Source: a virus. Taken from it: DNA of 58,570 bases. The translations under genes and the position numbers were made by a program. The notes beneath the pieces are model-generated. The model searched no databases, was not told the origin of the DNA, and saw only the letters and a list, made by a program, of their open reading frames with translations. The first letter of the stretch is position 1; the number at the start of each line of letters is the position of its first letter. Below, one piece after another: positions 21,909 to 40,953 of this stretch. The stretch lies in the IMG/VR virus record IMGVR_UViG_3300006153_000019, positions 1 through 58,570 of that record, one strand, 5' to 3'.

Positions 21909-22187
21909 TCCAATCCTCCTAATGATTATTTTTCTATTGCCAATCCTCTGCTATTCTCCTCTATACGCATCCAATCCCTTGCGTTTCAAGCCGTAGCAAC
22001 ACCACTCCATGCAAATCCTTTACAACACCTTATTTTTCTTCTCATAGCTATTCCTTTCCAATGCCTAGCGGTTCTATCCACTGCCCTGCTTTTCATCTCC
22101 CTTGCCATGCTCTGCTTTGCTAGTCTATTCCTTAGCAACTCACTTTTTTCTTGGTGCTCTGACTGCTTATGTAGTAGTTGTCGTACT

Positions 22188-22943
22188 TTACCCTATTTTC
22201 TCAAAACTTATTTGTAAATTTATATCTTCAATCATTTCCTCTAAATATCTTGGAGGTTCATAACAATCAATCAAATCATGAGCGTCAGCCAAATATTTTC
22301 GCTTAAGTGCTTTATAAGACTTTGGTTTACCAGAATCATCATAGATATTAAATTCTCTCTTGATTTGGCTATAAATATCACGATAAACCATTGAGCGAAC
22401 TACTGTATCTTGATATGCTTCGGAATCTTTTCCGCCTAAAACTTGCACGCCTTTGCGTTTAACATGATTAGAAAGTTCATCAGCTTCGGAGCCGTATAAA
22501 GGAATTTCAAATTCCAGTTTGTCCATACGTTTTTCCATCTGGTCTGTTCTGGTATCTAGTAGGAGAATTGCTCTCATTTCTTTTGTCATGTTTGGCATTT
22601 CGTAGTTATTTTTTACTCTGAAATAGTTCTTCACTAGCTGTCGCTGGACTTCCCAAGCTAAATCGTCTGTAAAGGACTTTACTAACATGAGGTAGCCTTG
22701 TTCTGTTATAAGCACTAAACCATTAGGAGCGATAATATCAAACTCCGTTTTGGCTTCCGACGAATTTCGTCGGAAGTAATCTTCACCCTCAATAAAATGC
22801 TTTTTATTCTCTCTGAAATTTCTTCCTGCCGTTCCCTCCGGTCTTTCATGCACGGTATCAATATCCTTGAATGTTATAACTCTCTTTCCATTAAATTCTT
22901 TTACAGCAATTTTTTGATTACCTATCTTAATTAAATTACCCAT
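22188..22943 (-). CDS. antirepressor-like protein (ORF6N + ORF6C domains)
   Basis: ATG after AAGGAGGTAAG; KEFNGKRVITFKDIDTVHERPEGTAGRNFRENKKHFIEGEDYF (ORF6N); C-terminal GGKDSEAYQ..YKALKRKY (ORF6C). Confidence 0.75.
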   Translation of the reverse strand: MGNLIKIGNQKIAVKEFNGKRVITFKDIDTVHERPEGTAGRNFRENKKHFIEGEDYFRRNSSEAKTEFDIIAPNGLVLITEQGYLMLVKSFTDDLAWEVQRQLVKNYFRVKNNYEMPNMTKEMRAILLLDTRTDQMEKRMDKLEFEIPLYGSEADELSNHVKRKGVQVLGGKDSEAYQDTVVRSMVYRDIYSQIKREFNIYDDSGKPKSYKALKRKYLADAHDLIDCYEPPRYLEEMIEDINLQISFEKIG

Positions 22944-22971
22944 CTTACCTCCTTTGCTACGGGGTAGTAAA

Positions 22972-23133
22972 CTACCCCACTTCTTGAAGCTGCCTAGCCT
23001 TGTCTGCAATCTCTTTATCCCTAAGAGCTGATAAATACACAAGAGCCATAGTTTTGCTTTCTTCTGAAATATCCTTGAAAATATTAGCAATCTCTTTTGC
23101 TTCTTTCCGAATATTCTTTTTAGATTCCGACAT
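22972..23133 (-). CDS. small hypothetical protein
   Basis: ORF 22972..23196 trimmed to the internal ATG with an SD. Confidence 0.45.
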   Translation of the reverse strand: MSESKKNIRKEAKEIANIFKDISEESKTMALVYLSALRDKEIADKARQLQEVG

Positions 23134-23223
23134 ATTGATACCCCCCTTCTTTTGAAGTAGGTTTGTGGTATCCTTTCTGTACAGGTGTTGCAGCACCGAG
23201 TACTAAAGAAAGGAGTAGCACAA

Positions 23224-23541
23224 ATGACAACTGAAGAATTATGTAATTTGGTTTCTCGTGAAATAAGCAAGTCTTTTAATTTGTCAAAAGAATTCATTCA
23301 AGAGCAACTTCTTAAGGGAGCAACGGAAGATATGACAGAACAAGAAGTATATGCACATATGTTTTTGCAATCCATACTAATATCCGCAAATCTTTCCGCA
23401 CAAGTTGTAATGAGCACTCTTATTGAAATGGAAGTTATTCCTCCTGACTTGCTTTCATCTCTGAAATTGAAGCCGCAACTGCACCTCGTAAAGTATCCAG
23501 TGGAGAACGCTGATTTGCCTTATAGCAATCAAGAAGAATAG
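23224..23541 (+). CDS. hypothetical protein
   Basis: ATG after AAAGGAG; 105 aa. Confidence 0.5.
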   Translation: MTTEELCNLVSREISKSFNLSKEFIQEQLLKGATEDMTEQEVYAHMFLQSILISANLSAQVVMSTLIEMEVIPPDLLSSLKLKPQLHLVKYPVENADLPYSNQEE

Positions 23542-23596
23542 CTTCGATACGCTTCAAGGTAGAATCAATGCTTTGGAGCGTATTTTCTTTTTCCAT
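23435..23596 (-). CDS. possible small early protein (53 aa) antisense-overlapping 23224..23541
   Basis: strong SD AAGGAGGTGAAAGC-ATG; 107-nt antisense overlap makes it uncertain. Confidence 0.3.
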   Translation of the reverse strand: MEKENTLQSIDSTLKRIEAILLDCYKANQRSPLDTLRGAVAASISEMKASQEE

Positions 23597-23676
23597 GCTT
23601 TCACCTCCTTAGTTGACTTTGTAAATATAGTATATCTAACTTTTTCAATTTTGTCAATATAAAATCATCAAAAAAG

Positions 23677-23705
23677 TTGACTTTTTCAAACTTTTTTGGT
23701 AGGAT
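23677..23705 (+). promoter_or_regulatory. promoter of the XRE repressor gene (TTGACT, 17 nt, TAGGAT) in a divergent switch region
   Basis: agttgacttt is repeated at 23611 and 23675; a divergent strong-SD ORF starts at 23596. Confidence 0.5.
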
Positions 23706-23724
23706 AATCTTAGGAGGTGAAAAA

Positions 23725-24075
23725 ATGAATACTAGAATCACAGAAATAAGAAAAAGCTATAATATGACCCAAGAGCGTTTTGCTGAAGAAATGGGGATTT
23801 CTAAAAATTATGTTAATTTAATAGAAAATGGCAAAAAGAATCCTGGAGATAGGCTTATTTCTGATATTTGCAGAAGATTTAATGTAAATGAAACATGGCT
23901 TCGCACTGGTCAAGGAAATCCAAGCAAAGAGGAAGATATTGACTTTGGCAAAATATGTGCTGATATTGGAGTGAACGACCCAATAGCAAGAGAAGCTATT
24001 GAAAAGTACTATGAGCTATCCCCAGAAGATAAAGAACTGTGGTGGAAGTTTATGGAAAAATTTATACTTAATTAA
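23725..24075 (+). CDS. XRE-family HTH repressor (CI-like candidate)
   Basis: ITEIRKSYNMTQERFAEEMGISKNYVNLIENGKKNP is a classical XRE HTH; only regulator transcribed against the early operon. Confidence 0.8.
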   Translation: MNTRITEIRKSYNMTQERFAEEMGISKNYVNLIENGKKNPGDRLISDICRRFNVNETWLRTGQGNPSKEEDIDFGKICADIGVNDPIAREAIEKYYELSPEDKELWWKFMEKFILN

Positions 24076-24080
24076 AAAAA

Positions 24081-24110
24081 GCGGGTGGATTATCTTCCAC
24101 CTGCTTTATT
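24081..24110 (+). terminator. rho-independent terminator
   Basis: gcgggtgga-ttatct-tccacctgc then tttatt. Confidence 0.6.
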
Positions 24111-24257
24111 ATGTAACTGCATTACAAATCCATAAATCATCTTAATGTTTTTTTCGTTGTTGATTTCCCCTATCATCTCAACAATTTTCTCCTTATAGGA
24201 GTCACCCCCCCCATACTCCGAAATTTGCCCTATACTGGTTATGCTCTGCTTGTCCAT
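24090..24257 (-). CDS. small protein of the ..MIYGFV.. family (55 aa), cassette a
   Basis: ATG after GGAGGTGGAG; ..EINNEKNIKMIYGFVMQLHNKAGGR; 4 paralogs elsewhere. Confidence 0.45.
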   Translation of the reverse strand: MDKQSITSIGQISEYGGGDSYKEKIVEMIGEINNEKNIKMIYGFVMQLHNKAGGR

Positions 24258-24331
24258 TAACTCCACCTCCGATTGTAATTATATTATTATATGCTCAGCG
24301 AAGGGAGAATATGACAGAAATTCTCCCCCAC

Positions 24332-25207
24332 TTAGTGTAAAATGATGGATTGATTTCCCATCTCCTTCTTAGCAGAAACTTCCACACAGTAAGCAATCAT
24401 CATTTCCTTGATAACGCCCACATAGATTTCCTTTAAGCGTTTATCTGCCATGATAACAGTCAGTTTATTGATGTTGTTTTTCTGTGCTTGGGTGCTGCCC
24501 TTTTCCTCCGCCCGTGCAATAGCGTTTCTGACTTTCTGGTCTAGGCAGCAACCAGCTTTTGTTGTTAATCTCTGGTAGCTCTCATTTCTGGCAGCGGCGT
24601 AACGGTTTCCGAAAGCAAAGGTGAAATTGGGGCTTTCTGCTATCTTGGTGATACAGTGATTCACCCATTGGGTAGTTTCCTGTTCGCTGGCTCCTTTGGT
24701 GAATGTTTCTTTCACCGTCTGAATGGTTTCTGCTTGCTGGTCTACTCGTTCTTCTAACTTATTTTGCCGTTCTGTTATACGTTTCTGTTGAAGTTCTGTC
24801 CGTGCAATAGATTCAGTTAATGCTATCAGTGCTTGGGTTTGCGGAGATAACTCTTGACGGTCAATTTCCTGTTGCTTATGGCGATTGTCTACCTCAATGA
24901 AATACTTTCTAACTTGCTTCCCAATTTCATTTCTTTCTAACATTGCCATTTCTTTAGCGGTATCAAGTTTAATCTCATATTCAATACTGTGCTTTGTTCC
25001 AGATATCTGTTCCTCAATTTTGGGGAGCAGGTCATAATCTATTTTTTCTTTAGCATCACATTCGTTTAATCTACGCTTTACCCATGTTGAGAAATCGGTT
25101 CTTACTAATAAGGATTTATGCAAATCTTTACCATATACAATCTTTTCACCAGTATTTGTTTCATAAACTGGAACGAGTCCATTTTCAATTATTCGCATAT
25201 TTTCCAT
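24332..25207 (-). CDS. antirepressor (AntA-type N-domain plus shared C-domain), cassette a
   Basis: ATG after AAAGGAG; N-terminus IIENGLVPVYETNTGEKIVYGKDLH..TDFSTWVKRRL; C-domain shared with 25646..26500. Confidence 0.7.
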   Translation of the reverse strand: MENMRIIENGLVPVYETNTGEKIVYGKDLHKSLLVRTDFSTWVKRRLNECDAKEKIDYDLLPKIEEQISGTKHSIEYEIKLDTAKEMAMLERNEIGKQVRKYFIEVDNRHKQQEIDRQELSPQTQALIALTESIARTELQQKRITERQNKLEERVDQQAETIQTVKETFTKGASEQETTQWVNHCITKIAESPNFTFAFGNRYAAARNESYQRLTTKAGCCLDQKVRNAIARAEEKGSTQAQKNNINKLTVIMADKRLKEIYVGVIKEMMIAYCVEVSAKKEMGNQSIILH

Positions 25208-25332
25208 TAAAAATCTCCTTTCAGTGTTTGACAACAGCACTAAAGAGAGATATAATAGAAATATCAACCGCTTTAGTGCGTTGGTGGATTGAGAAGTTGG
25301 ATACTTTGCACGGTAACAGCTTCTCTTTTTTG

Positions 25333-25509
25333 TTATTCTTTTACTTTTTGATACTCACTTTCAATACCACGGCGGACAACCTCTGCTTTCTTAACATTTA
25401 AGATTTTTGCAGTTTCCTCTAATTTTATGTAGGTTTCTTCATCAATCCGTGTACGAAGCATTATATCCTTGGTATTTTCTTTAATCTTTTGTCCCATTTT
25501 GGGAGACAC
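25333..25509 (-). CDS. RHH (CopG-like) regulator, cassette a
   Basis: GTG after GAAAGGGGTG; VSPKMGQK..MLRTRIDEETYIKLEE..AEVVRRGIE parallels 4 paralogs. Confidence 0.6.
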   Translation of the reverse strand: MSPKMGQKIKENTKDIMLRTRIDEETYIKLEETAKILNVKKAEVVRRGIESEYQKVKE

Positions 25510-25526
25510 TTTATCACCCCTTTCAA

Positions 25527-25582
25527 ATTGTAGCAACATTTTGAAGTATCTATAATATAACATTGTTGCTACAATCTGTCAA
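25527..25582 (-). promoter_or_regulatory. promoter (TTGACA, 17 nt, TATATT) bracketed by the 12-bp inverted repeat attgtagcaaca / tgttgctacaat (operator a)
   Basis: inverted-repeat arms at 25527..25538 and 25564..25575 flank the -10. Confidence 0.6.
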
Positions 25583-25590
25583 CCCCTTTT

Positions 25591-25626
25591 TTAAAAAAAA
25601 TTTAACCAGCCATAAAATAGCTGGTT
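25591..25626 (-). terminator. rho-independent terminator, copy 1 of a repeated about 50-bp terminator-promoter junction
   Basis: aaccagc-N9-gctggtt followed on the minus strand by AAATTTTTTTT; near-identical copy at 29060..29095. Confidence 0.65.
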
Positions 25627-25645
25627 TCCTGCAAAATAGTCTCTC

Positions 25646-26500
25646 TCATACCCTCTCCCCCCTTTTAACAGAGGCTTCCACACAGTAAGCAATCATCATC
25701 TCTTTAAGAACGGTTTCATAGATGGGCTTCAAAGCCTTGTCGCTCTCGATAATAGTCAGCTTGTTAATAGCATTTATCCGTGCGGCACTAGCTCCAGCAT
25801 TTATCGCTCGTCCCTTTTCCGTCTGCACCCGCTGGTCAAGGCGGCAAGGCTTCTTGCGGTTTAAGCGGTCGTAACTTTCAGCGGTCACAGCTTGGTATTT
25901 CTCGGCTCTGGTTCCTAGATAGTGGTAGTTAGGGCTTTCGACTATAGCGGTGATACACTGCTTCACCCACGGGCGGAAGTCTTTAGTTGTTTCACGACTG
26001 AAAGTATCGGTAATGACTTTTTGGGTATTCTCTATCCTATCAACTTTTTCAGATAATTTCTTTCGTTCTATTTGTTCCTGTGCTACAGCCGTGAAAATTT
26101 TATTGAACATCTGTAATTCTGGTGATAAGTCGGAAATAGAAATATTACTTTCTTTAGAACGAAAATAATTGTTTACTAAATCTCGTTGTACACTCCATGC
26201 TAAATCATCAGATAGGGATTTTACAAGCATAAGATATCCGCTTTCAGTAATAACAGTTTTATCCATGTAATCATTATCAGAGATAGGAAACAAGTGGCTT
26301 GTACGAATTTCGTCAGAGCTTACAATAAAATAATCTTCATCTTTAATGAATCTCTTTTTATTAGAATTAAAGTTTCTTCTTGCGGTTCCGTCTACACGTT
26401 CATGTACAGCGTCGATATCGTTAAAAGTTACTATTCGTTGTCCCTTATACTCTTTAAGCAAAATATCTACATTTCCAATCCGTACTAATTTGTTATCCAT
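25646..26500 (-). CDS. antirepressor (ORF6N N-domain plus shared C-domain), cassette b
   Basis: ATG after GAAAGGAG; KEYKGQRIVTFNDIDAVHERVDGTARRNFNSNKKRFIKDEDYF. Confidence 0.7.
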   Translation of the reverse strand: MDNKLVRIGNVDILLKEYKGQRIVTFNDIDAVHERVDGTARRNFNSNKKRFIKDEDYFIVSSDEIRTSHLFPISDNDYMDKTVITESGYLMLVKSLSDDLAWSVQRDLVNNYFRSKESNISISDLSPELQMFNKIFTAVAQEQIERKKLSEKVDRIENTQKVITDTFSRETTKDFRPWVKQCITAIVESPNYHYLGTRAEKYQAVTAESYDRLNRKKPCRLDQRVQTEKGRAINAGASAARINAINKLTIIESDKALKPIYETVLKEMMIAYCVEASVKRGERV

Positions 26501-26626
26501 AAAATAAACTCCTTTCAAAAAATTGTTCTTGAAAGAAGTCCCTCTGCATGTTACAATATTCCATGCAGGGAAACTTCTCTGTGACTGCATAAGAGTAAGC
26601 TCACTCGCCAAAGTAACCGCTTGCTC

Positions 26627-26800
26627 TTATTTTTTTATGTCAGACTTCAACTTTTTAATCCCTCTCCTTGTCGCTTCCATTTTACTGACTTTTTCCTGTT
26701 CGCAATATGCGCTTAATACTTCCTCGCTCTCTTTGTCAAGCCGCACATGGATTGATGTACCTTTAGGATTATCGGTTGGTCTGCCTGTTCGTGGACTCAT
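26627..26800 (-). CDS. RHH regulator, cassette b
   Basis: MSPRTGRPTDNPKGTSIHVRLDKESEEVL..; SD GAGGTGATACAG. Confidence 0.6.
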   Translation of the reverse strand: MSPRTGRPTDNPKGTSIHVRLDKESEEVLSAYCEQEKVSKMEATRRGIKKLKSDIKK

Positions 26801-26820
26801 CTGTATCACCTCACTTTTGA

Positions 26821-26861
26821 AGCCCATAAATATATTATATATTATGTAGCCCAAAAGTCAA
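26821..26861 (-). promoter_or_regulatory. promoter/operator b (TTGACT, direct repeats AGCCCA)
   Basis: conserved aaaagtcaagcactttt box; the stop of 26858..27445 lies inside the -35. Confidence 0.5.
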
Positions 26862-27445
26862 GCACTTTTTTCAAAATAGTTTAAATTTTCTGCTATGGCG
26901 GTGATACAGGACTTCACCCATGGGCGGAAATCTTTAGTACTATCTTTGGAGAATGTGTCTGTTATAACTTTTTGAGTTGCCTTAATAGACTCAATTTCTG
27001 CTGCCTGCCGTTTCTGCTCTAACTCAATCTTAGCTTGGCTTTCAATCAGTGCATAAGCCCTCTGTAATTCGGGGGATAAATTAGAGTAGTCTATCGCTTT
27101 CTGTTTTGCCTTTTCCTCTAGCTGGGTGAAATACTCCCTTGCCTGTTCTGCCTTTGCACTATTACCTTTTACAGACAACTTCTTTGCAAAGTGAGCAGTT
27201 AAATTGTAATCCTCTCTTTCCTTTATTCCAACTCCCGACTCGTACTTAATGACGAACCGTATAAAATCAATGTTTTCCTCTGCAAATTCATTTTCTGAAA
27301 TATTGGTTTTACACCATTTGGAATAATTGCTTGGACTAAGTTCTAAAAACGCATATAACTTACTTGCTGTGGTCATTCCATTTTCATCAACATCTAAAGC
27401 AACTTCAATGGGTGTACGAAAATGAATATTAGTAATTTCTGACAT
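26858..27445 (-). CDS. antirepressor-like protein, C-terminally truncated paralog, cassette c
   Basis: ATG after AGGAGGT; shares ..QKVITDTFSKDSTKDFRPWVKSCITAIAE.. with cassette b, then ends in promoter b. Confidence 0.6.
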   Translation of the reverse strand: MSEITNIHFRTPIEVALDVDENGMTTASKLYAFLELSPSNYSKWCKTNISENEFAEENIDFIRFVIKYESGVGIKEREDYNLTAHFAKKLSVKGNSAKAEQAREYFTQLEEKAKQKAIDYSNLSPELQRAYALIESQAKIELEQKRQAAEIESIKATQKVITDTFSKDSTKDFRPWVKSCITAIAENLNYFEKSA

Positions 27446-27575
27446 AATGATACCTCCTATAGAAAAATATGTTGATTTTCCCATAAGAGGCTGATATAAT
27501 AAATTTGTCAATCTCTTATGGGATTAGATTAGCATTTAATAAGGTAATCGCTTTCTTGGTCGGAACAGGATTGCC

Positions 27576-27758
27576 TTATTTTTTATTGCGTGCCTTTTGA
27601 TACTCACTTTCTATACCATTTCTGACTATTTCAGATTTTGTTATGCCTAATTCTTTTGCTGTAAATTCCAACTTTCTTTCTGTTTTTTGGTCAATACGAA
27701 CTCTAAGCATAGTATCTTTACTATTGTCAGATTTTGGTCTGCCTGTCCTTGGCGACAC
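27576..27758 (-). CDS. RHH regulator, cassette c
   Basis: GTG start; SPRTGRPKSDNSKDTMLRVRIDQKTERKLE..SEIVRNGIE. Confidence 0.6.
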   Translation of the reverse strand: MSPRTGRPKSDNSKDTMLRVRIDQKTERKLEFTAKELGITKSEIVRNGIESEYQKARNKK

Positions 27759-27779
27759 TATCTTTCCTCCTTTCTTTTT

Positions 27780-27820
27780 GTCGCTACATTAAATATAATA
27801 CTGTAGCGACAAAAAGTCAA
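27780..27820 (-). promoter_or_regulatory. promoter/operator c (TTGACT; inverted repeat gtcgctaca / tgtagcgac)
   Basis: inverted-repeat arms 27780..27788 and 27802..27810 bracket the -10. Confidence 0.55.
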
Positions 27821-27885
27821 GCACTTTTTGAAAAAATTTAATGGAGGAGTTTCCGATTCCAAATCGGAAAATAAGTATCTATTTC

Positions 27886-27919
27886 ATTGTAACACAGGTA
27901 AATAAAAAATTTGTACCAT
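27886..27919 (-). promoter_or_regulatory. TGGTACAA-N19-TACAAT promoter, left half of a palindromic divergent pair
   Basis: tttgtaccatttgaaat ... atttcaaaatggtacaaa palindrome at 27910..27953. Confidence 0.5.
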
Positions 27920-27943
27920 TTGAAATATATAGGTAATTTCAAA

Positions 27944-27977
27944 ATGGTACAAACTATTTTTACATATATGATATACT
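27944..27977 (+). promoter_or_regulatory. TGGTACAA-N19-TATACT promoter, right half; transcript would be antisense to the J-domain gene
   Basis: plus strand reads ATGGTACAA, 19 nt, TATACT. Confidence 0.4.
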
Positions 27978-28153
27978 GATATATTTTCAATCAATCTAAT
28001 TATTGTTTACAGTAATTACATTATTTTCATTTGACATATTTGTCAACCCCTAATTTTACAATAGAGTGCATCAAATTTGATGCACCCCTGCCGGTAATAA
28101 CCAGCTTCAAAAGCATATATAATATGTAGTTACTATATAAAAAAATGTAATAA

Positions 28154-28981
28154 CTACACCCCCCAATCATTTTTAAGTCTATTAAGCAACTGCATTTCTT
28201 TTGATGTATCAATATCTGGATTTGCGTCTGGGTGAAATTTCTTTGATAGAACTCTATAAAATCGCTTGAACATTTCCTTATCTTCACTCGTGTAGTTACT
28301 AGAAGAAAATTTGCCATAACTACTTGCATTTCCTCCAAAGAATTTATTGTAGTTACTATAGAAATCTTCTTGATAACTACGGCTTTTTTCTTCGTATTCC
28401 TTACGTTGTTTGTATTCCCTCTTTATTTTTTCAAGGTATTCTGGGTTTCTTAATTTCCCAAATACATCATAGCATTTATCATACTCCTTTTCGTCTACTT
28501 CATATTCTCTTGTAAATTCTGTTTTACGTAGTGCATAAATTGTGGTTATTTTCTCATGTTCTTGATGTACTTTGTATTCTTCGGTCTTTGAAAACTCGTC
28601 TTGTATTTTACTTTCCAAGCCAGATATCTTTGTTTGAATCATATCATAAATTTCATCTACATCAGCAGAAAGTTCTTTTGCAATTTCTTGTATTCTAGTG
28701 TCACACCAATCATACAAACTAAATGTATCTGTTGCAAATTCATAATAATTTGCCGTACATAAAACGAATTGTTTTTTCTTTACTCTACCATTTTCTCTAT
28801 AACTTTGATGTATGCTTATGCGATATGCTTTTTTTATTGGTCGTTCAAAACTTTCTGAACTATATGTCCAGTAATAATAATTACCTAAAAGACTACTGTT
28901 CATTTCTCTTGACAAAAGTTCTTTCGCATAGCCATTTTTATTTGGTTTCTTTGTTTCTATCTCTTGAATAACACAAAACAT
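28154..28981 (-). CDS. protein with C-terminal J-domain (HPD motif)
   Basis: ..MFKRFYRVLSKKFHPDANPDIDTSKEMQLLNRLKNDW at the C-terminus; ATG after GGAGGA. Confidence 0.6.
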   Translation of the reverse strand: MFCVIQEIETKKPNKNGYAKELLSREMNSSLLGNYYYWTYSSESFERPIKKAYRISIHQSYRENGRVKKKQFVLCTANYYEFATDTFSLYDWCDTRIQEIAKELSADVDEIYDMIQTKISGLESKIQDEFSKTEEYKVHQEHEKITTIYALRKTEFTREYEVDEKEYDKCYDVFGKLRNPEYLEKIKREYKQRKEYEEKSRSYQEDFYSNYNKFFGGNASSYGKFSSSNYTSEDKEMFKRFYRVLSKKFHPDANPDIDTSKEMQLLNRLKNDWGV

Positions 28982-29059
28982 AATATCCTCCATGTAGTTA
29001 TTACATTTACTTTTGCAATAACTACATTATATCTTTTAGATACAGAAGTCAACCCCTTT

Positions 29060-29095
29060 TTAAAAAAAATTTAACCAGCCATAAAATAGCTGGTT
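29060..29095 (-). terminator. rho-independent terminator, copy 2 of the repeated junction, followed by TTGACT promoter of the J-domain gene
   Basis: same aaccagc/gctggtt hairpin and T-run as 25591..25626. Confidence 0.6.
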
Positions 29096-29371
29096 TCGGT
29101 CTTTCTTAATAAACTTTCTGGTATGTAATCATCTTTCCCCAACTTGTTGGGGAAACCAAGGATAGATTATGATATTGATGATTGGGAAAGTGATATGTCC
29201 GAGATTTCTAATCAAATATTAAGTGCTGAAAGTGAAGAGGAGATAGATAAGATAGTGGCGGATTATTTGAAAGAAAACAGCAGCAAATAGATTTTGATTT
29301 TTAATATAAATTATTATTTTAAAACTATTTATGCAGAAGAAAACCCCCAAGCACATGCCAGGGGTTTTATC

Positions 29372-30334
29372 TTATTCAAGGCTAATAATAGGTGTTCCAC
29401 TACCGCTTACGGTAGGAACATTGCCCGTCCACTTGTCAATCTTTGTTTTTTCCAACAGTTCATCAGTCAAACTTTCGGAAATCATACGATTAGCATTAGC
29501 TTGGGCTTCTGCATTGATTCTTATTATCTGTGCGTCAGAGTCTGCTTTAATCTTAGCAGCTTGGGCAGCTCCTTCTGCTGCAATCTTGTTCTTTTCAGCT
29601 TCAATTTGAGCCACACTTTTTGCTTTTTCTGCTTCTACTTCTGCTACTTTTTTAGCTGATTCAGCGTTAATCCGTGCTGTTTCTGCTTGTGTCCGTGCTA
29701 ATTCCTGTTCTTGTTGGGCATTAACTTTGGCTTGTATGGCTTCTTCGGTTTTTGGGTCTACTTTGATATCCGTGAAATTAACTGTGTCGATAATTATTCC
29801 ATATTGGTCAAACTTCTGTTTTAAATAAATATCTAACTGATTGTTAATTTCAGTACGCTTATCACCAAATATATCCGTAACCGGATACCGTGCAGTAACT
29901 TCTTGTGTCCAGGCTACGACTTTAGGTTTAATAAAATCATTTTTTACTTTATCTCCGCTTTTACCTTTGAATTCAATAAAAACTTTGTCAAGTCGTTCCC
30001 TATCAAACTTATAAGAAAATTCAAGGTTGACAGTTACTGTTTTTCCGTCTGACGTTGGGGTATTGAAACTTTCGTCATTTTTAGAATCGCCTTTGCTATC
30101 AGAAGTAAGATAACTTTGCTCAATTCCGATAGAGTAGTTTGTTACTTTTTTTGTTGGAGAAACAAGATGAAATCCTTGGTCAAGAATTTCTCCCGCAACT
30201 CCGCCGTTCATATTATACACTACTCCAGCATACCCAGCAGGTATATATTCACTGCAAGTTACAAATCCAATGACGGCGATTATTGCCAATACAATAAAAA
30301 ATATCAATCCCACTATGCCAGTACGTCTTTCCAT
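29372..30334 (-). CDS. SPFH/Band-7 (prohibitin/HflC-like) membrane protein
   Basis: 320 aa; N-terminal TM, ..GYAGVVYNMNGGV..GFHLVSP.. and Ala/Glu/Lys-rich coiled coil. Confidence 0.75.
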   Translation of the reverse strand: MERRTGIVGLIFFIVLAIIAVIGFVTCSEYIPAGYAGVVYNMNGGVAGEILDQGFHLVSPTKKVTNYSIGIEQSYLTSDSKGDSKNDESFNTPTSDGKTVTVNLEFSYKFDRERLDKVFIEFKGKSGDKVKNDFIKPKVVAWTQEVTARYPVTDIFGDKRTEINNQLDIYLKQKFDQYGIIIDTVNFTDIKVDPKTEEAIQAKVNAQQEQELARTQAETARINAESAKKVAEVEAEKAKSVAQIEAEKNKIAAEGAAQAAKIKADSDAQIIRINAEAQANANRMISESLTDELLEKTKIDKWTGNVPTVSGSGTPIISLE

Positions 30335-31440: not shown

Positions 31441-31487
31441 GGGTGCTAACGGATACTAATTGTGTCTGTTAGTGCCCTTTATTTTTG
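31441..31487 (+). terminator. intrinsic terminator inside the 5' leader of the tape-measure gene (attenuator candidate)
   Basis: 10-bp stem GGGTGCTAAC / GTTAGTGCCC then TTTATTTTT, ending 5 nt before the SD GGAGGTGAG. Confidence 0.5.
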
Positions 31488-31498
31488 GAGGTGAGTTT

Positions 31499-34400
31499 GT
31501 GGCAGATGGTCGGGTTGTAATTGATACAGAAATTAACACAGATGGTATTGAAATTGGCGAAGCAGATATTGTCAAAGCTATGAAACGACTTACTGTATCT
31601 ATTAACCATCTATCTGACAAAATCCAAGGACTTTTTACTGGAATAGGTATTGCTGCTGAAAAATCATATGGCCAAATTCAGAATACATCAAAAGGTATAA
31701 ATGAAATTTCAAATTCTGCACAATCAGCAGAAGAAAATATTGAAGATTTGCAGAAGCAAATGGAATCAATCACTATAACTGGATTAGATTTTGAACAAAA
31801 AGAGTTTGATTTGGAAGAGGAACCAAGAACTATAACTGTTAAAAATGTTGGTTATGACAAAGCAGCTATAGAATATATTGAGAAATACAGTCAGGAATCA
31901 ACTAAAGCTGCACAAGATGTCAACCAATTACAAAAAGAAATTTCTGAATTGCAAAACAAACTAAAAGAACTTGAAAAATCACATGTTTATTTTGGTGATG
32001 ATGAATATGATGAGGCTTTTATAAAGCTTCAAGACTTAAAACAATCTCTCAAAGAATATAAAGAAAATTTAGTTAGCCCTATTGATACTACCACAATGGA
32101 GGGGGAAATTGAGGCTTTAGTTAGCAAACTTTCTGAATTAAGAAGGGAAGGCCAGGGACTAGGCGATACCGAATATGATGAAACAGTACGTCAACTTGCT
32201 ATAGCTAAAGAGAGAGTAAAGGAATATGCTGCTGAACTTTCAAAAACACCAAAAATGGTTGAAAGAGAAAATCAGCTTTTAGCTGAAAAACAAGCAAAAG
32301 CAGAGGCGGCAGCAAAAAGAGAAGAAGAACAACAGGCTAAAGCACAAGCTCGTGCAGAAGCAGTAGCTCAAAAAGAAGCTCAAAGGCAAGCAAAAGCTGA
32401 AGCGGATGAAGCAAAGAGAGTAGCAGCAGAAGAAAAAATACTTGAAGCAAAAAGAGCTGTAGAAGTTCAAGAGGCAATGGAAGAACAGCGACTTAAAGAG
32501 ATTGCAGAAACAGCCCGTGTATCTTCTGATGAAATAATAAATATGCGGCAGGAGCTTGAAAAATTAAGTTCTAGGCAAGCTGATTTAAAAAAGGCCGGAT
32601 TAGGAGAAGGTTATGAAGAATATGACCAAAATATTATTAGGATAGAAAATATACGAAAAGAAATTGATGAATATAGAAAAACACTTACAGATGTTGAAGA
32701 AAAGGCAAATAGAAATATTTTTTCTGGAATAATAGAACAATTAAAAAAACTATCAAATATAGCCCAGAAGGCATCAACAGCATTAGCAAAAATAACCGGA
32801 CAAAGAATTTTAAATGGTCTAAAAAAAATTACTGCTGGCATTTTTGGGCTAAATAAGACAACAAATAAATCTACATCAGGTTTTAATACATCTTTAAAAA
32901 CACTATTAAGGTACGGAATTGGCATAGAATCATTATTTACCTTAATAAATAAGCTTCGGTCTGCATTAGTGGAAGGTTTTAAAAATTTAGCTCAATATTC
33001 TAATGATACTAATGCTACGATATCTGGCTTAATGGCCTCGCTTGAACAATGTAAAAATGCTTTAGCTACAGCATTTGACCCAATTTTACAAGCAGTAGCC
33101 CCAGCTTTAAATTATTTAATAAATTTGGTAACAGCAGCAGCAACAGCAGTAGCACACTTAATAGCAGCTTTAACCGGAAAAAGTACCTTTATAAAAGCAA
33201 CTAAAGTACAAAAGGATTATGCTAAATCTCTTAAAGGTACAGGTAGTGCAGCTAAATCAGCAGGAGAGGATGCCGAAGGTGCACTTGCTCCATTTGACAA
33301 ACTCAATGTTATGGCTGATGAAGCAACAGGAAAAGGTAGTGGCGGCGGTGGTGGCGGAGCTGGTGGAACACTAGCGGAGGATATGTTTGAAACTGTCCCT
33401 GTAGAGAGTAAATTTAAACAGCTTGCAGATAATCTTAAAAAATTTATTAAATCGGAAGATTGGAAAGGGCTTGGCGCTTATATTGCAAATGGTCTTAATG
33501 CAGGTTTGCAAAAGATTTATGACGTAATAAGTTGGGATAATGTAGGGCCTAAAATTACATACTTTGTCAATGCATTTACAGAAACTTTTAATAGTATTGT
33601 AGATAATCTTGACTGGGATTTGCTTGGCGGAACTATAGGCGCAGGAGTCAATACAGTTGTAAATACTCTCAACCTTTTAATTGAAGGTATTGATTGGGAA
33701 AATATTGGAATCAAACTTTCTGTCGGATTCCGCGGAATGTTAAATGAAATTAACTGGACTAATTTAGGCAATCTTATCGGAAATAAATTCATGATTACAT
33801 GGAATATATTCAAGGGATTTGTTGACGATATGTGGAGAACGAATAACTTCACAGGGTTATCTGGTTGGAATGAGCTTGGAATTTCATTGGCACAGGGATT
33901 TAATGGCGTCTTTGAAAAAATGGATTTTGGCCAAATTGGTACAACTCTAGGTAAAGTAATAACAGGAATATTTCAAGCTGCTATAGATTTTGCAAAAACT
34001 TTTGATTGGAAGGGACTTGGAGAAAATATAGCAAATGGAATAAACCAGTTTTTAGAGAATTTTGACGCTACAACGGTGGCAAAAGGAACTAATGAGGTAA
34101 TAAAAGGATTACTTGACTCTCTGATAGCAGCTATAGAAAAAACTGATTGGCATTTGATGGGGGAAAAACTAGCAGAATTTCTTGAAAATCTTGATTGGAA
34201 TGGAATTGCTGATAGAGTTTTTGAAGCAATAGGCGCTGGTTTTGGAGGCTTTTTTAGTTTCCTTCAGGGACTTATAGGGGACGCTTGGAATGATGTAATA
34301 GATTGGTGGCATGAAAACGCTTATGAAGATGGCGAATTTACTATACAAGGACTTTTTGATGGCATAATAAATAAGTTAAAAGATATTGGTTCATGGATAA

Positions 34401-35224
34401 AAGAACATATATTTGACCCATTTATAAAAGGATTTAAAACAGCTTTTGGGATTCATTCGCCTTCTACAGTAATGCAGGAAATGGGTGGCTACTTAATGGA
34501 CGGTCTGAAAAATGGAATTAGTAATTTTATTCCGAATGTAATTCAAAAATTTGCAGACCTAAAAAATAAAATAATTTCCAAATGGGACGAGGTAAAACAA
34601 AATACTGCTACTAAATGGGAAGAAATTAAAAGTAATTTATCTCAAAAATGGGATAACTTAAAAACTACTGCCGGAACAACATTCAACAGTATAAAACAAA
34701 AAGTATCTGAAATGTGGGGAAATGTTCAGACGGATACATCTTCCAAATGGGGAGATATTAAAAATACTCTATTTGGAGTTTGGGAAAGTCTGAAAGATAA
34801 AGCAGAAAAAATATTTGGCAAAATCAAAGACGCTGTGAAAAATACTTGGGAGAAGATACAAGGTTTTGATGGAGATGTAGGAACTGCTGGACGGTCAGCA
34901 CTTGCAGCAGCTTCAGCAACAGTAAGAACAATGACCCCATCAGCTCAACCAGTGAATCTTCCTCGCCTGGCCTCTGGTACTGTAGTCCCTCCCCGTGCTG
35001 GTGAATTTGCTGCTATTTTAGGTGACAACAACCGTGAATCAGAAGTAGTATCTCCGTTATCTACCATAAAACAAGCGCTTGTAGAAGCTCTTGGGGAATT
35101 TAATGGAATGGGTGGAGATATCAACCTTAATATAAATCTTGACGGAAAAGTTATCTATCAAGATGTGATAAAAAGAAACCGAATGGAAAAAAATCGTACT
35201 GGCAAGAACCTTTTGTTGACATAG
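31499..35224 (+). CDS. tail tape measure protein
   Basis: about 1240 aa from the GTG after GGAGGTGAG; coiled-coil N-terminal part, G-rich segment, hydrophobic repeats; followed by distal-tail genes. Confidence 0.85.
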   Translation: MADGRVVIDTEINTDGIEIGEADIVKAMKRLTVSINHLSDKIQGLFTGIGIAAEKSYGQIQNTSKGINEISNSAQSAEENIEDLQKQMESITITGLDFEQKEFDLEEEPRTITVKNVGYDKAAIEYIEKYSQESTKAAQDVNQLQKEISELQNKLKELEKSHVYFGDDEYDEAFIKLQDLKQSLKEYKENLVSPIDTTTMEGEIEALVSKLSELRREGQGLGDTEYDETVRQLAIAKERVKEYAAELSKTPKMVERENQLLAEKQAKAEAAAKREEEQQAKAQARAEAVAQKEAQRQAKAEADEAKRVAAEEKILEAKRAVEVQEAMEEQRLKEIAETARVSSDEIINMRQELEKLSSRQADLKKAGLGEGYEEYDQNIIRIENIRKEIDEYRKTLTDVEEKANRNIFSGIIEQLKKLSNIAQKASTALAKITGQRILNGLKKITAGIFGLNKTTNKSTSGFNTSLKTLLRYGIGIESLFTLINKLRSALVEGFKNLAQYSNDTNATISGLMASLEQCKNALATAFDPILQAVAPALNYLINLVTAAATAVAHLIAALTGKSTFIKATKVQKDYAKSLKGTGSAAKSAGEDAEGALAPFDKLNVMADEATGKGSGGGGGGAGGTLAEDMFETVPVESKFKQLADNLKKFIKSEDWKGLGAYIANGLNAGLQKIYDVISWDNVGPKITYFVNAFTETFNSIVDNLDWDLLGGTIGAGVNTVVNTLNLLIEGIDWENIGIKLSVGFRGMLNEINWTNLGNLIGNKFMITWNIFKGFVDDMWRTNNFTGLSGWNELGISLAQGFNGVFEKMDFGQIGTTLGKVITGIFQAAIDFAKTFDWKGLGENIANGINQFLENFDATTVAKGTNEVIKGLLDSLIAAIEKTDWHLMGEKLAEFLENLDWNGIADRVFEAIGAGFGGFFSFLQGLIGDAWNDVIDWWHENAYEDGEFTIQGLFDGIINKLKDIGSWIKEHIFDPFIKGFKTAFGIHSPSTVMQEMGGYLMDGLKNGISNFIPNVIQKFADLKNKIISKWDEVKQNTATKWEEIKSNLSQKWDNLKTTAGTTFNSIKQKVSEMWGNVQTDTSSKWGDIKNTLFGVWESLKDKAEKIFGKIKDAVKNTWEKIQGFDGDVGTAGRSALAAASATVRTMTPSAQPVNLPRLASGTVVPPRAGEFAAILGDNNRESEVVSPLSTIKQALVEALGEFNGMGGDINLNINLDGKVIYQDVIKRNRMEKNRTGKNLLLT

Positions 35225-35233
35225 GTGATAAAT

Positions 35234-35647
35234 ATGAGAAGTGATTATCAAGGATATCTAATTAAATTTGGAGATTATCAGTTGCCAAATTCATTCATAA
35301 CTGAATATGCGATTGTCCCTAATCAGCGTATCGAGAAAAAGGCATGGAGGGATAACACGGAGTATTTACAACGTGTTACCTCTCCTAACTTCAAAACCAC
35401 TATTAAACCAGTAGTTAGAAAAATGAATCAAGATGAATTTGATTTATTTATTTCCATCAAAGCCCATGGATTATTAAATATTGACCAACGCAAATACAAT
35501 GTAACCTATTGGAATACAGAAACCATGACTTATGCAACAGGGGAATTTTATGTACCAGATATTGAAAACAAAATAACTCATATTGCAGATAATGACACTG
35601 GGGAAATGTATTATGACGGGTTTACTTGGGAAATGATTCAATATTAA
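35234..35647 (+). CDS. distal tail protein-like small tail component
   Basis: 137 aa directly after the tape measure gene; call by position. Confidence 0.5.
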   Translation: MRSDYQGYLIKFGDYQLPNSFITEYAIVPNQRIEKKAWRDNTEYLQRVTSPNFKTTIKPVVRKMNQDEFDLFISIKAHGLLNIDQRKYNVTYWNTETMTYATGEFYVPDIENKITHIADNDTGEMYYDGFTWEMIQY

Positions 35648-35656
35648 GGTGGCAAC

Positions 35657-38149: not shown

Positions 38150-39474
38150 AAAAAATTCTTGAATATTTAAACAGTATTTATAATGTTCTTGGCTTGCAAG
38201 AATATGACCCAAATAAAAAATACAGAATTAGTCCATTTATTATAAAAGAAGAAGTTGCAAACGGATATTTGATTTATAATACATTAACTTGTGAGATGGT
38301 TTTTGCTACAGATGAAGATTTGACAGAAAGCCAAGAATATTTTGTACTTAGATGGTTCCTAATAGATAAAGATATTGACCCATATAGTATGTGTAAAACT
38401 TTCAAGCGAATATGGACACACATGAAAAAAAGAAAGTATATGGGAAAGATTGCACAGTATGTTATTTTTACCACAACAAATTGTAATGCTCGGTGTAAAT
38501 ACTGTTATGAATCTGGATGTTTAAAAGAGGATATGTCTGTAGAAACGGCACAAAAGGTTGCTGAATATATCAATATGACTACAAATGGGAATGTATCAAT
38601 TCAATGGTTCGGTGGAGAACCGTTATACAATGCACAGGCTATAAATATCATATCTGAAAGATTGCGTGAGAGTTTTTTCCCCTATTCCTCTACAATAGTT
38701 TCTAATGGATATTTATTTGACCAGTGTGACATTAAAACGCTAAAAGACCTGTGGAAACTGGACAAAGTGCAGATTACATTAGATGGTACAGAGGACAATT
38801 ATAATGTTGCTAAAGCCTATGTGGAAGCCTGTGAAAATCCATTTGATAAAGTTCTGAACAATATAGAATATCTAGTATCAAATGATATTGGTGTTACTGT
38901 ACGAATGAATCTATCAAATGACAATATAGACGATATGCATAGTCTGATTGATTTGTTGCATGAACGGTTCGGAAAGTATAAAAGATTTTCTGCCTATTCT
39001 CACCCGTTATTTGATGGTGGGAGCTTCCACGGTGCCTGCACCAAAGAAGAACATAGAGAAATTACAGAAGGATACATAGCTATCCAAGAACATTTAAAAC
39101 GCTGTGGTCTATGTGGTGATTATCCTATTGATAAAGTAAGAATTACAGAATATTGCATGGCTAATAGCATGTCAAGTGTTACTATATCGCCAAGTGGCAA
39201 AGTAGGGCTATGTGAGCATTACCCAGATACAGAGCTAATTGGAAATATTCAAACCGATACAGATAAATTTGATAAAAGGGTAGTATCTGCTTGGCAAGAA
39301 CTATATGAAAGTATAGAATGTCGCACATGCCCATTATATCCGCAATGTGCGAAAATAAAAAAATGTCCAACGAGTGAATGTAATGCAGAGTGGCGGGACC
39401 ACCTAGAATTCCAGATACGGGATTCTATGCGAAATACATATAAAAAATACAAGGAGGAGCAGTCAACCAGATGA
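38146..39474 (+). CDS. radical SAM / SPASM-domain peptide-maturase-like enzyme
   Basis: CNARCKYC (CX3CX2C) at about aa 113; C-terminal ..SPSGKVGLCEHY..CRTCPLYPQCAKIKKCPTSEC (SPASM-like); ATG overlaps the fibre stop (ATGA). Confidence 0.8.
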   Translation: MKKILEYLNSIYNVLGLQEYDPNKKYRISPFIIKEEVANGYLIYNTLTCEMVFATDEDLTESQEYFVLRWFLIDKDIDPYSMCKTFKRIWTHMKKRKYMGKIAQYVIFTTTNCNARCKYCYESGCLKEDMSVETAQKVAEYINMTTNGNVSIQWFGGEPLYNAQAINIISERLRESFFPYSSTIVSNGYLFDQCDIKTLKDLWKLDKVQITLDGTEDNYNVAKAYVEACENPFDKVLNNIEYLVSNDIGVTVRMNLSNDNIDDMHSLIDLLHERFGKYKRFSAYSHPLFDGGSFHGACTKEEHREITEGYIAIQEHLKRCGLCGDYPIDKVRITEYCMANSMSSVTISPSGKVGLCEHYPDTELIGNIQTDTDKFDKRVVSAWQELYESIECRTCPLYPQCAKIKKCPTSECNAEWRDHLEFQIRDSMRNTYKKYKEEQSTR

Positions 39475-39647
39475 AAGCAATAGCATATAAACCAGATGAC
39501 CTAGATGAACTTGCTAGGTTATTAGATTTAATTCCAGTCAAAGGCATGAAACGTATTAGGATTATGTCAAGAATTGGCGATATCTTGAATTCTGGAATTC
39601 CTGTAGAAATAAACGATAACAAAGAAAACAATGAAAATAAAAAATAA
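39471..39647 (+). CDS. 58-aa Cys-free small protein translationally coupled to the rSAM gene
   Basis: ATGA overlap with the rSAM stop; MKAIAYKPDDLDELARLLDLIPVKGMKRIRIMSRIGDILNSG.. Confidence 0.45.
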   Translation: MKAIAYKPDDLDELARLLDLIPVKGMKRIRIMSRIGDILNSGIPVEINDNKENNENKK

Positions 39648-39662
39648 AAGGAGAATCTGTAA

Positions 39663-40202: not shown

Positions 40203-40304
40203 ATCTAAGCAAATTTTCTTAATATTTAAGTATGGAAGGAGTAGTCCCTCAGAATGGAAGCAAATCAACTTTGAAACCGAATAAAATTTATTAGAAATAA
40301 TACA

Positions 40305-40814: not shown

Positions 40815-40823
40815 CTAATTAAA

Positions 40824-40854: not shown

Positions 40855-40953
40855 CTGTAGAAATAATGCTAATGGTTTTAACACATTGTATAAACGCAAA
40901 AACGATAAAATATAACGAGATATTTTAATTTATTAGTAGAAAGGAATAAATTT

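Follow-up and report, generated by a model that had tools for sequence, protein, structure and literature searches.

The window analysed here is the whole 58,570-nucleotide (nt) virus record IMGVR_UViG_3300006153_000019, a complete circular assembly of an element of about 58.5 kb with an exact 25-nt direct repeat at 1..25 and 58546..58570. It carries five cassettes, named a to e, all of them on the minus strand. Each consists of a promoter with operator repeats, a gene for a small protein of 57–60 amino acids (aa) with a predicted ribbon-helix-helix (RHH) fold, and a downstream gene, called the cargo below, for a protein of the Bro/Ant families. In addition, each RHH-cargo spacer encodes a predicted convergent antisense RNA gene, which was overlooked in a preliminary description of this DNA. 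The places given there for the five cassettes are confirmed by open reading frames (ORFs), promoters and domains, and the order of RHH gene before antirepressor-type gene also stands, except that two small ORFs lie between the two in cassette e. The parts of the cassettes are as follows.

27780..27820, minus strand: promoter/operator of cassette c, TTGACT-17-TATATT, with the inverted repeat GTCGCTACA (27810..27802) / TGTAGCGAC (27788..27780) around the -10.
27576..27758, minus strand: RHH c, 60 aa, GTG start, beginning MSPRTGRPKSDN; beta-strand TMLRVRID.
27472..27584, plus strand: antisense unit of cassette c, promoter TTGATT-17-TATAAT (27472..27500) and predicted RNA of about 78 nt (27507..27584).
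26858..27448, minus strand: cargo c, AntA-domain protein (Pfam 8e-13), 196 aa, C-terminally truncated.
26818..26861, minus strand: promoter/operator of cassette b, TTGACT with -10 TATAAT, and direct repeats GGGCTACA (26852..26845) and GGGCTTCA (26825..26818).
26627..26800, minus strand: RHH b, 57 aa; beta-strand TSIHVRLD.
26529..26636, plus strand: antisense unit of cassette b, promoter TTGAAA-17-TACAAT (26529..26557) and predicted RNA of about 73 nt (26564..26636).
25646..26503, minus strand: cargo b, ORF6N (Pfam 2.1e-15) and a C-terminal domain common to cargo a.
25626..25604, minus strand: intrinsic terminator after cargo b.
25527..25582, minus strand: promoter/operator of cassette a, TTGACA-17-TATATT, with the inverted repeat ATTGTAGCAACA (25575..25564) / TGTTGCTACAAT (25538..25527).
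25333..25509, minus strand: RHH a, 58 aa, GTG start; N-arm VSPKMGQK, without GRP motif; beta-strand IMLRTRID.
25228..25331, plus strand: antisense unit of cassette a, perfect consensus promoter TTGACA-17-TATAAT (12/12; 25228..25256) and predicted RNA of about 69 nt (25263..25331).
24332..25207, minus strand: cargo a, 291 aa, AntA N-domain (Pfam 1.8e-18) and the shared C-terminal domain.
24090..24266, minus strand: small ORF at the end of cassette a, 58 aa, ..KMIYGFV..
24101..24084, minus strand: terminator of cassette a, immediately beyond the 3' end of the XRE gene, which is convergent with the cassette.
45611..45651, minus strand: promoter/operator of cassette d, TTGACT-17-TATAAT, with the imperfect inverted repeat (7/10) GAGCGTGCAT (45642..45633) / ATGTGTGCTC (45620..45611).
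45420..45593, minus strand: RHH d, 57 aa; beta-strand IRTSVRLD; Pfam RHH_1 6e-5.
45316..45430, plus strand: antisense unit of cassette d, promoter TTGCCA-17-TATAAT (45316..45344) and predicted RNA of about 80 nt (45351..45430).
44480..45301, minus strand: cargo d, P22_AR_N (1.4e-11) and ORF6C (2e-28).
44358..44468, minus strand: small ORF after cargo d, 36 aa, ..EMIYGFV..
53208..53250, minus strand: promoter/operator of cassette e, TTGACA-17-TATCAT, with direct repeats TGTGCTACA (53241..53233, 53216..53208).
53013..53189, minus strand: RHH e, 58 aa, GTG start, containing ..KPGRPTSNPKG..; beta-strand KPTHVRLD.
52919..53022, plus strand: antisense unit of cassette e, promoter TTGAAT-17-TATGAT (52919..52947) and predicted RNA of about 69 nt (52954..53022).
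52774..52902 (..KMIYGFV..) and 52626..52790, minus strand: small ORFs between RHH e and the Bro-N gene.
51762..52562, minus strand: cargo e, Bro-N (1e-24) and ANT/KilAC (2e-32).
51514..51750 and 51494..51463, minus strand: 78-aa ORF and terminator at the end of cassette e; the cargo region as a whole covers 51463..52902.

The five small proteins are paralogues with pairwise identities of 29–59%, a being nearest to c and b nearest to e. RHH d exceeds the Pfam RHH_1 cut-off (23.2 bits vs 20.5) and is the sole one of the five to reach RHH_1. A 42-sequence family profile searched against the PDB retrieved mostly RHH structures with weak E-values (SvtR, ParG, MazE7, CopG), and hhalign aligned the profile with CopG, the beta-strands matching in register, at 83.5% probability (E 8e-6). 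With an N-terminal beta-strand, two helices and this profile similarity, the proteins belong, as had been proposed, to the RHH superfamily by sequence comparison, and they form a family without a Pfam model. Two variable beta-strand positions align with Q9/N11 of Arc and R4/T6 of CopG, and an invariant Arg aligns with R13 of Arc and T8 of CopG. The Arc and CopG residues at these positions contact bases. A hidden Markov model (HMM) search of the window found no RHH gene beyond the five of the cassettes, and none divergent from a cassette promoter.

The regulatory sequences were compared across 160 viral loci (queries RHH b and c) and 79 bacterial-genome loci (query RHH d), together more than 230 related cassettes; loci are cited below by L numbers. 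The cassette promoters are among the best sigma-70 matches of their regions. The promoter layout is family-wide and consists of TTGACT, a T-rich stretch, half-site 1, an AT-rich -10, half-site 2, AAAAGTGAGGTGA and the start codon. A repeat of at least 8 base pairs (bp) flanks the -10 in 83% of 124 distinct promoters, compared with 1.7% after shuffling of the core, and the flanking repeats are direct in 55 cases and inverted in 48. The repeats reported earlier around the -10 of the window promoters are as described, those of b and e being direct, those of a and c inverted and that of d imperfectly inverted (7/10); the TGTAG core ascribed to all of them is present in four of the five cassettes and missing from d. 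The half-site words are absent elsewhere in the 58.5-kb genome save for two single copies inside coding DNA, and the whole-genome word search found none at the XRE/early switch. The box aaa(a/t)gtcaag that had been noted at all RHH promoters is present, and it is simply the -35 plus the T-tract found family-wide. A role of this shared -35 box as an operator of the XRE repressor was considered and rejected. TTGACTTTT is conserved in the promoter family of unrelated phages and is therefore a promoter feature; GTTGACTTT occurs twice in the XRE/early-promoter region.

The half-site differs with the type of beta-strand, and the following pairs have been found.

Beta-strand xPIHVRLD: half-site GGGCTACA.
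Beta-strand RIT(I/V)RLD: half-site TGGCAGACA.
Beta-strand NK(I/L)SIRIS: half-site TGCC(A/C)GACA.
Beta-strand DIQLKIRAD: half-site GTGTACAC.
Beta-strand ND(V/L)KVRLD: half-site GAGTTCC / GGAACTC.
Beta-strand DTM(L/F)RVR(I/L)D: half-site TGTAGCGAC / TTGCTACA.

An operator 7-mer is common to 72–75% of the cassette pairs that have the same two outward residues, and to 1–8% of those with different residues. Even where the remaining sequence was at least 70% identical, pairs with different residues shared an operator 7-mer in only 2 of 24 cases. A permutation test of the association between residues and operators yielded 165 for the real data, while the permuted data had a mean of 18 and never exceeded 40, and the set of 79 genome loci reproduces the same residue-to-half-site code. 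A given RHH type can have either direct or inverted sites, which speaks for a constraint acting on the half-site itself. The specificity is truly diversified, because the half-site sequence tracks the two variable DNA-facing residues of the beta-strand. The covariation of the half-site with the residues aligned to Arc Q9/N11 also lends indirect support to a dimer that would insert its paired beta-strands into the major groove of the half-sites. The earlier view of autoregulated cassettes with diversified operators is therefore well supported by the comparison, with flanking repeats in most promoters that follow the beta-strand residues, and each RHH protein probably represses its own promoter. 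The N-arm SPRTGRPxxDNPK is nearly invariant family-wide (G6 is invariant, R7 and P8 are present in at least 90%; an example is encoded at 27740..27758 of the window); RHH a, which had been listed among the proteins with a TGRP start, begins VSPKMGQK and lacks the motif. Since the GRP core resembles an AT-hook and TT(T/A)T precedes each half-site, contact of the arm with the minor groove is possible.

The number of specificities within the window is probably smaller than five. RHH a and c share the outward residues M and R in addition to the invariant Arg, and the core TGTAGC(A/G)AC is common to both operators. RHH b (S,H) and e (P,H) have His in common, and their half-sites read G(G/T)GCT(A/T)CA. 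RHH d, with outward residues R and S, stands alone. Both half-site variants of each pair (a/c and b/e) occur within single promoters of homologues (L081, L029/L031), and cross-recognition within a/c and within b/e is therefore likely. On these grounds about three specificity groups (a+c, b+e and d) appear to be a better estimate for the window than five orthogonal ones. The preliminary description had proposed five antirepressor modules that are orthogonal to one another, each autoregulated by its RHH protein and controlled by protein only, in which each Ant would inactivate a different repressor or answer a different induction signal. The five cargo architectures are indeed distinct, the operators do differ, their pairs occurring only at their own promoters, and trans-acting antirepressors that cross-induce prophages are known from Gifsy phages (PMC3121763). 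The shared DNA-facing residues, the near-identical half-sites and the homologues that combine both variants in one promoter run against orthogonality, as does the conserved antisense RNA layer predicted below against protein-only control. The cassettes also have no signal-sensing domain and no LexA box at their promoters; CGAACN4GTTCG with at most one mismatch gave two matches in the window, both elsewhere. The phage protein AriS further offers a counter-example to antirepressor function (PMC9043618). The diversification thus stands, and mutual orthogonality of all five modules is unlikely.

The second layer of control is the predicted antisense RNA. Each of the five RHH-cargo spacers contains a near-consensus promoter with 17-nt spacing on the plus strand. 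Downstream of it come a short 5' hairpin and then a long one, whose U-run ends at the RHH stop codon, and RNAs of 69–80 nt are predicted in the window; in cassette c the terminator hairpin and U-run at the end of the RNA reach the 3' end of the RHH gene. When the best match, scored out of 12, was taken from the 280 nt after the RHH stop codon, an antisense promoter of at least 10/12 was found in 71% of 156 cassettes, compared with 19% on the sense strand and 2–3% in coding controls. In this discovery set the antisense -35 is located 91–104 nt past the RHH stop codon. The result was replicated in the 79 bacterial-genome loci, where the promoter was found in 74% vs 22% with a median position of 97 nt. 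RNAalifold analysis of 77 diverse copies gave an 11-pair terminator stem with compensatory changes at every pair. A covariance model trained on the viral loci and the five window copies found the five expected copies in the window and nothing else significant, all five being members of the training set and hence not independent. In the 79 genome loci, which lie outside the training set, the same model gave 43 matches at E <= 0.01, every one of them antisense; 37 sit immediately at the 3' end of the RHH match by which the locus was defined. No Rfam family was found for the RNA at gathering thresholds over the whole window or at E-value thresholds over 24000..27900, where sub-threshold noise only (L20 leader, sok, SpR10) was recorded. 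UUGGUC, a YUNR-like sequence, often forms the apical loop of the terminator hairpin (for example at 27550..27565 and 52990..53000 of the window), and about a quarter of the cassettes, including window b, have the complementary loop CGCCAA instead. The terminator stems differ completely between cassettes while the loop recurs. An integron-like attC reading of the hairpin after the RHH gene, prompted by stacked units, was set aside in favour of the simpler terminator, because a U-run follows the hairpin and a near-consensus promoter precedes it at a fixed distance.

The antisense promoter lies within a long imperfect palindrome. In two examples worked by hand (window b and L023), positions at which the palindrome is mismatched form G.U pairs in the sense RNA. 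The complement of the antisense -35 and its neighbouring bases makes up the 3' arm, and this arm is complementary to the Shine-Dalgarno region of the cargo as well. Among 80 representatives, duplexes between the 5' and 3' arms had a mean energy of -17.2 kcal/mol for cognate and -9.0 for non-cognate partners. The corresponding means for the 3' arm and the region of the ribosome-binding site (RBS) were -12.5 kcal/mol and -9.2, with a permutation standard deviation of 0.28. In the folding models, sequestration of the RBS is general. The RBS hairpins of b and d are followed by a U-run and were flagged as terminator-like by the scan. Blocking of the antisense target in equilibrium folding lowered the probability that the Shine-Dalgarno sequence is unpaired from 0.63 to 0.01 in e and from 0.53 to 0.32 in d. 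An improbable alternative is that a second DNA-binding protein, either the N-domain of the cargo or the phage repressor, has its operators in the inverted repeats around the antisense -10, and that the antisense promoter is a regulated switch partner of the RHH promoter. The geometry is that of the RHH operators, the spacer holding one arm and the other following the -10, and the cargo N-domains are predicted DNA binders. The conversion of arm mismatches into G.U pairs in window b and L023 argues for RNA pairing instead, and a pure DNA operator would have no need of an arm that is complementary to the downstream RBS with cognate-specific stability.

Taken together, it is probable, if well short of certain, that the cassette is a portable dual-control expression unit that places Bro/Ant-family genes under the logic of copG-rnaII-repB in pMV158 and arc-sar-ant in P22. 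A strong sigma-A promoter would drive the gene for the 57–60-aa RHH protein, and read-through would express the cargo. RHH dimers would occupy the two half-sites of 8–12 bp, the first between -35 and -10 and the second immediately 3' of the -10, and so shut their own promoter, the base-contacting beta-strand residues deciding which half-site is read. Some 95 nt beyond the RHH stop codon, a near-consensus promoter would fire back toward the RHH gene and yield a two-hairpin RNA of about 70–80 nt, complementary to the RHH-cargo leader just upstream of the translation signals of the cargo. The leader segment complementary to the antisense -35 region could pair either with the upstream arm or with the Shine-Dalgarno region of the cargo, and the antisense RNA together with convergent transcription would push the leader into a closed, attenuated form. 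The net effect would be a short burst of cargo expression when the DNA enters a cell without the cognate RHH protein and RNA. Tight silence would follow afterwards and in the lysogen, and incoming cassettes of the same specificity would be silenced in trans. The phage would thereby possess Ant-like effectors of five kinds, controlled by about three RHH specificities.

Several points weigh against this dual-control circuit. The promoters, terminators and RNA folds are predictions, and the inverted repeat around the antisense -10 could be a protein operator. In equilibrium folding the Shine-Dalgarno sequences of a, b and c are mostly paired whether or not the target is blocked, so that toggling of the leader by the antisense RNA is supported in part, at equilibrium for d and e only. 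Antirepressor activity of the cargo is unsupported by the sequence comparisons, and AriS shows that other roles exist. Cargo c is truncated and RHH a has no GRP arm; not all five cassettes need therefore be functional. Finally, the second, divergent Mnt-like repressor of P22 is absent from the window by HMM search.

The cargo proteins are all assigned to 'anti-repressor' families by PHROGs, which is a matter of annotation only, and the designation antirepressor is used here in that limited, putative sense. Pfam profiles agree with the N-domains given earlier for a (AntA), b (ORF6N), d (P22_AR_N) and e (Bro-N), and correct that of c, which is AntA too, in a truncated protein. The stop codon of cargo c falls within the -35 of the cassette b promoter, and the homology of c to the C-terminal domain of b extends to the start of that promoter. 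The C-domains of a and b are alike (40% identity), as are the N-domains of c and a (32%), and the ORF6N of b and the ORF6C of d resemble those of a sixth Ant-like protein in the genome (52% and 37%, respectively). Judging from these similarities, cargo domains have been shuffled within this genome. The C-terminal domain of cargos a and b (24332..24900 and 25646..26200) has about 170 aa, and its beginning is also found in truncated c. No Pfam family was found for it, and its PHROG matches are only unknown or 'anti-repressor' (phrog_29672, phrog_17477). About 75 of 96 representative downstream proteins of the comparison set carry Bro-N (30), Rha (21), ORF6N (14), AntA (9) or P22_AR_N (1). It is possible, though on balance doubtful, that the circuit works as described and that its cargo does not consist of antirepressors but belongs to the KilA-N/Bro/Rha class of DNA-binding or host-directed regulators, for instance as AriS-like SOS inhibitors or regulators of phage transcription, pulsed at infection. 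AriS (AntA+KilAC), the characterised Firmicute homologue, inhibits the SOS response via KilAC and regulates its own phage via its N-domain, and it is not a classical antirepressor; the N-domains of AriS-like proteins vary among AntA, Bro-N and Rha as they do here (PMC9043618). The N-domains are predicted DNA-binding modules according to Iyer et al. (2002), as cited in PMC9043618, and the shuffling of cargo domains would also suit such regulators. Antirepressor function is favoured instead by the P22 antirepressor N-domain of cargo d and by the annotation, and only the annotation, of all matched PHROG families. In addition, the position and circuit of the cassettes parallel the ant moron of P22, whose Ant is a true antirepressor (PMC2629481).

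The three MIYGFV ORFs of 36–58 aa share ..(K/E)MIYGFV.. and are paralogues attached to cassettes a, d and e, and no Pfam or PHROG family was found for them. After cargo b, an RBS/start context of the MIYGFV type (ggggagagggtATGa) is followed by only a 15-codon ORF. A general third component of the cassette was considered for these ORFs and rejected, as only one further copy (L021) occurs in the 160 viral loci.

The cassette is widespread and modular among relatives. Each query gave more than 500 matches in viral contigs, and the cassette is common in prophages of Lachnospiraceae, Oscillospiraceae, Ruminococcus and related gut Clostridia, where the homologues are all labelled 'hypothetical'. 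In L161-L166, an RHH protein with 93% identity to b is encoded ahead of a P22_AR_N protein in place of an ORF6N protein, and this cassette directly precedes the tape-measure gene. Two or more RHH units were found within +/-4 kb in 29 of the 160 viral loci and within +/-6 kb in 20 of the 79 genome loci. RHH units were stacked without cargo between them in 24 of 198 units (viral loci) and 28 of 110 (genome loci). Five tandem RHH units about 300–450 bp apart occur in L187 (5200..7000, an Oscillospiraceae metagenome-assembled genome) and in L225 (4400..6000). In the L187 array every unit comes with an operator promoter of its own and an element resembling the antisense promoter, and no cargo genes lie between the units; the array is flanked by housekeeping genes (rsmI-like and nucleoside-phosphorylase-like) with no phage genes nearby. 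This cargo-less stacking suggests a trans-acting 'immunity' role for the RHH/RNA unit. The same arrays bear on a very unlikely alternative, in which the cassette is a toxin-antitoxin-like or abortive-infection module with the RHH protein as antitoxin and regulator, the antisense RNA as a type-I-like antidote and a Kil/Bro-type cargo as a growth-inhibiting toxin. An RHH-first, bicistronic and autoregulated operon is the layout of such modules, Xre-Bro pairs have been proposed as toxin-antitoxin-like modules with some Ant-domain proteins being toxic (PMC2701414), and the cassettes are found as morons and as small chromosomal islands. The cargo-less RHH stacks, however, fit a trans-repressor better than an antitoxin. 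The RHH protein consists of the DNA-binding fold and a short N-arm, without the C-terminal toxin-binding extension by which a type II antitoxin neutralises its partner, and no toxin or defence partner was found. PADLOC gave no significant matches, and membership in a known defence system is rejected; Pfam detected no known toxin domains in the window cargos or the 96 representatives.

A CopG/RNAII- or Arc/sar-type circuit would explain both the silence of potentially harmful Ant/Bro/Rha proteins in lysogens and their pulse at infection. As a tentative extension, the RHH/antisense unit may be a specificity-diversified 'immunity group' determinant, comparable to plasmid incompatibility, in an arms race between phages. 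If so, incoming phages would fire a pulse of Ant-like effectors, and such pulses would be silenced in trans by stacks of cargo-less RHH/RNA units, varied in specificity, in resident prophages and even in host chromosomes. The family would in that case also supply a natural collection of more than 20 orthogonal RHH-operator pairs, the code of which could be read from the beta-strand. Phages with several cassettes, and RHH arrays without cargo, suggest that part of the superinfection and anti-immunity contest in the gut is fought via these units. The covariation of residues and half-sites offers small, likely orthogonal repressor/operator pairs, which are possible genetic tools for anaerobic Firmicutes. 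There is also a gap in annotation, as the RHH family has no Pfam model and the antisense RNA no Rfam model, yet the unit is very common.

The window phage is temperate and of siphovirus type, with relatives in Lachnospiraceae and other Clostridia. A megablast search of 22000..30000 against 50,697 phage records found no annotated close relative. The control region next to the tandem cassettes includes two further genes.

23725..24075, plus strand: XRE/HTH_3 repressor candidate, convergent with cassette a and divergent from the early operon.
22188..22943, minus strand: sixth Ant-like protein, ORF6N+ORF6C, without RHH or antisense unit; an early gene downstream of the switch promoter 23657..23629.

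The HTH_3/XRE domain of the first and the Pfam ORF6N and ORF6C domains of the second, which has no RHH partner, bear out what had been said of both. Cassettes c, b and a sit behind the XRE gene, and their transcription is directed at it. The early operon encodes the ORF6N/ORF6C protein, Erf and a DnaD-like loader. It is followed on the minus strand by genes for terminase, portal and minor head protein and then by a Tn916-type integrase (8051..9241). Past the circular junction, the minus-strand order continues with methyltransferase, scaffold, probable capsid, cassette e and the connector/tail-completion genes, and then with cassette d and a second tyrosine recombinase (43049..44092). Cassette e is thus embedded in the head-tail structural operon as had been described, between the head genes (scaffold 55795..56403) and the connector/tail-completion genes (50251..51412). 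The plus strand carries the tape-measure, tail and lysis block (31460..42461).

Other observations concern the genome at large. The Tn916-type integrase (Integrase_DNA + Phage_integrase) lies between the minor head protein and the methyltransferase/scaffold genes, and this odd placement recurs in the relatives L161, L162 and L165. The tape-measure/tail/lysis block is opposite in strand to the head and connector genes, and in L161 the tape-measure gene is co-directional with the connector genes; the difference may reflect an inversion or another genome organisation. Four copies of a repeat of about 17–27 nt (core GAGCTAAACGGCAGAAT) in alternating orientation (39936-39962, 40803-40832, 41882-41905 and 42928-42954) bracket short ORFs on alternating strands (39663..40202 plus, 40305..40736 minus, 41871..42461 plus and 42472..42999 minus). 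The ORF 41871..42461 has a weak tail-fibre match, and the tyrosine recombinase at 43049..44092 adjoins the repeat region (39927..42955), which resembles an Rci-type shufflon or a system for inverting tail-fibre tips. In addition, a transfer RNA gene (56624..56700, minus strand) lies between the methyltransferase and scaffold genes, and a radical-SAM protein (38146..39474, plus strand) is encoded within the tail gene block.

Searches of the literature gave no account of Gram-positive phages that combine an RHH-Bro/Ant cassette with an antisense RNA, and four known systems resemble the cassettes in part. Gifsy prophages of Salmonella have several trans-acting antirepressors per lysogen, which can act on non-cognate repressors and are LexA-controlled (PMC3121763). 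The likeness lies in this functional idea, which underlies the preliminary model; the Gifsy genes differ in having LexA control, for which no box was found at the cassette promoters, and in having no RHH or antisense unit. AriS-like proteins, as described for Listeria phi10403S, combine AntA, Bro-N or Rha N-domains with a KilAC C-domain in Firmicute prophages (PMC9043618). Cargo e, and a and c in part, belong to this two-domain family; AriS differs in being described as an SOS inhibitor and phage regulator, with no RHH/antisense control cassette reported.

In the immI region of P22, mnt, arc and the antisense sar, which limits antirepressor synthesis, control ant, and the region is a moron in the late operon (PMC2629481). 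The cassettes are alike in that an RHH gene, that of the autoregulator Arc in P22, comes first in the operon and a small antisense RNA, predicted in the cassettes, is encoded between it and the Ant-type gene, that cassette e and the cassette of the relative L161 are likewise morons within a late/structural operon, and that cargo d has a P22_AR_N domain. This domain annotation is the only pointer in the window to a P22-type inactivation of a prophage repressor by Ant, which would apply here by analogy. The cassettes differ in that their RNA is not homologous to sar (no Rfam match) and leaves the RBS itself uncovered, and in having five copies per genome, a Gram-positive host and mostly different Ant N- and C-domains.

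In pMV158, the RHH autorepressor CopG is cotranscribed with repB, and the leader immediately ahead of the repB translation signals has its complement in the countertranscript RNAII (PMC4485353). CopG that is already present keeps only the cognate plasmid from becoming established (PMC5717011). The cassettes differ from this system in being carried by a phage and in having an Ant/Bro-family effector instead of a Rep initiator. Their RHH proteins have an extra conserved N-arm (SPRTGRPxxDNPK) and only remote sequence similarity to CopG, and their operators consist of two separated half-sites flanking the -10 instead of one pseudosymmetric site at the -35. The predicted RNA is longer (60–100 nt, two hairpins), and its leader has an RBS-pairing alternative. 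The likeness lies in the architecture. All five cassettes have the gene of the putative RHH autorepressor first, the effector in the same operon and an operator that overlaps the promoter, and they have a countertranscript, here predicted from sequence, that is intergenic, has its own promoter and intrinsic terminator and is complementary to the effector leader. Overall, one circuit solution would thus appear to serve in plasmid copy control, in immunity I of P22 and in the morons of Gram-positive phages.

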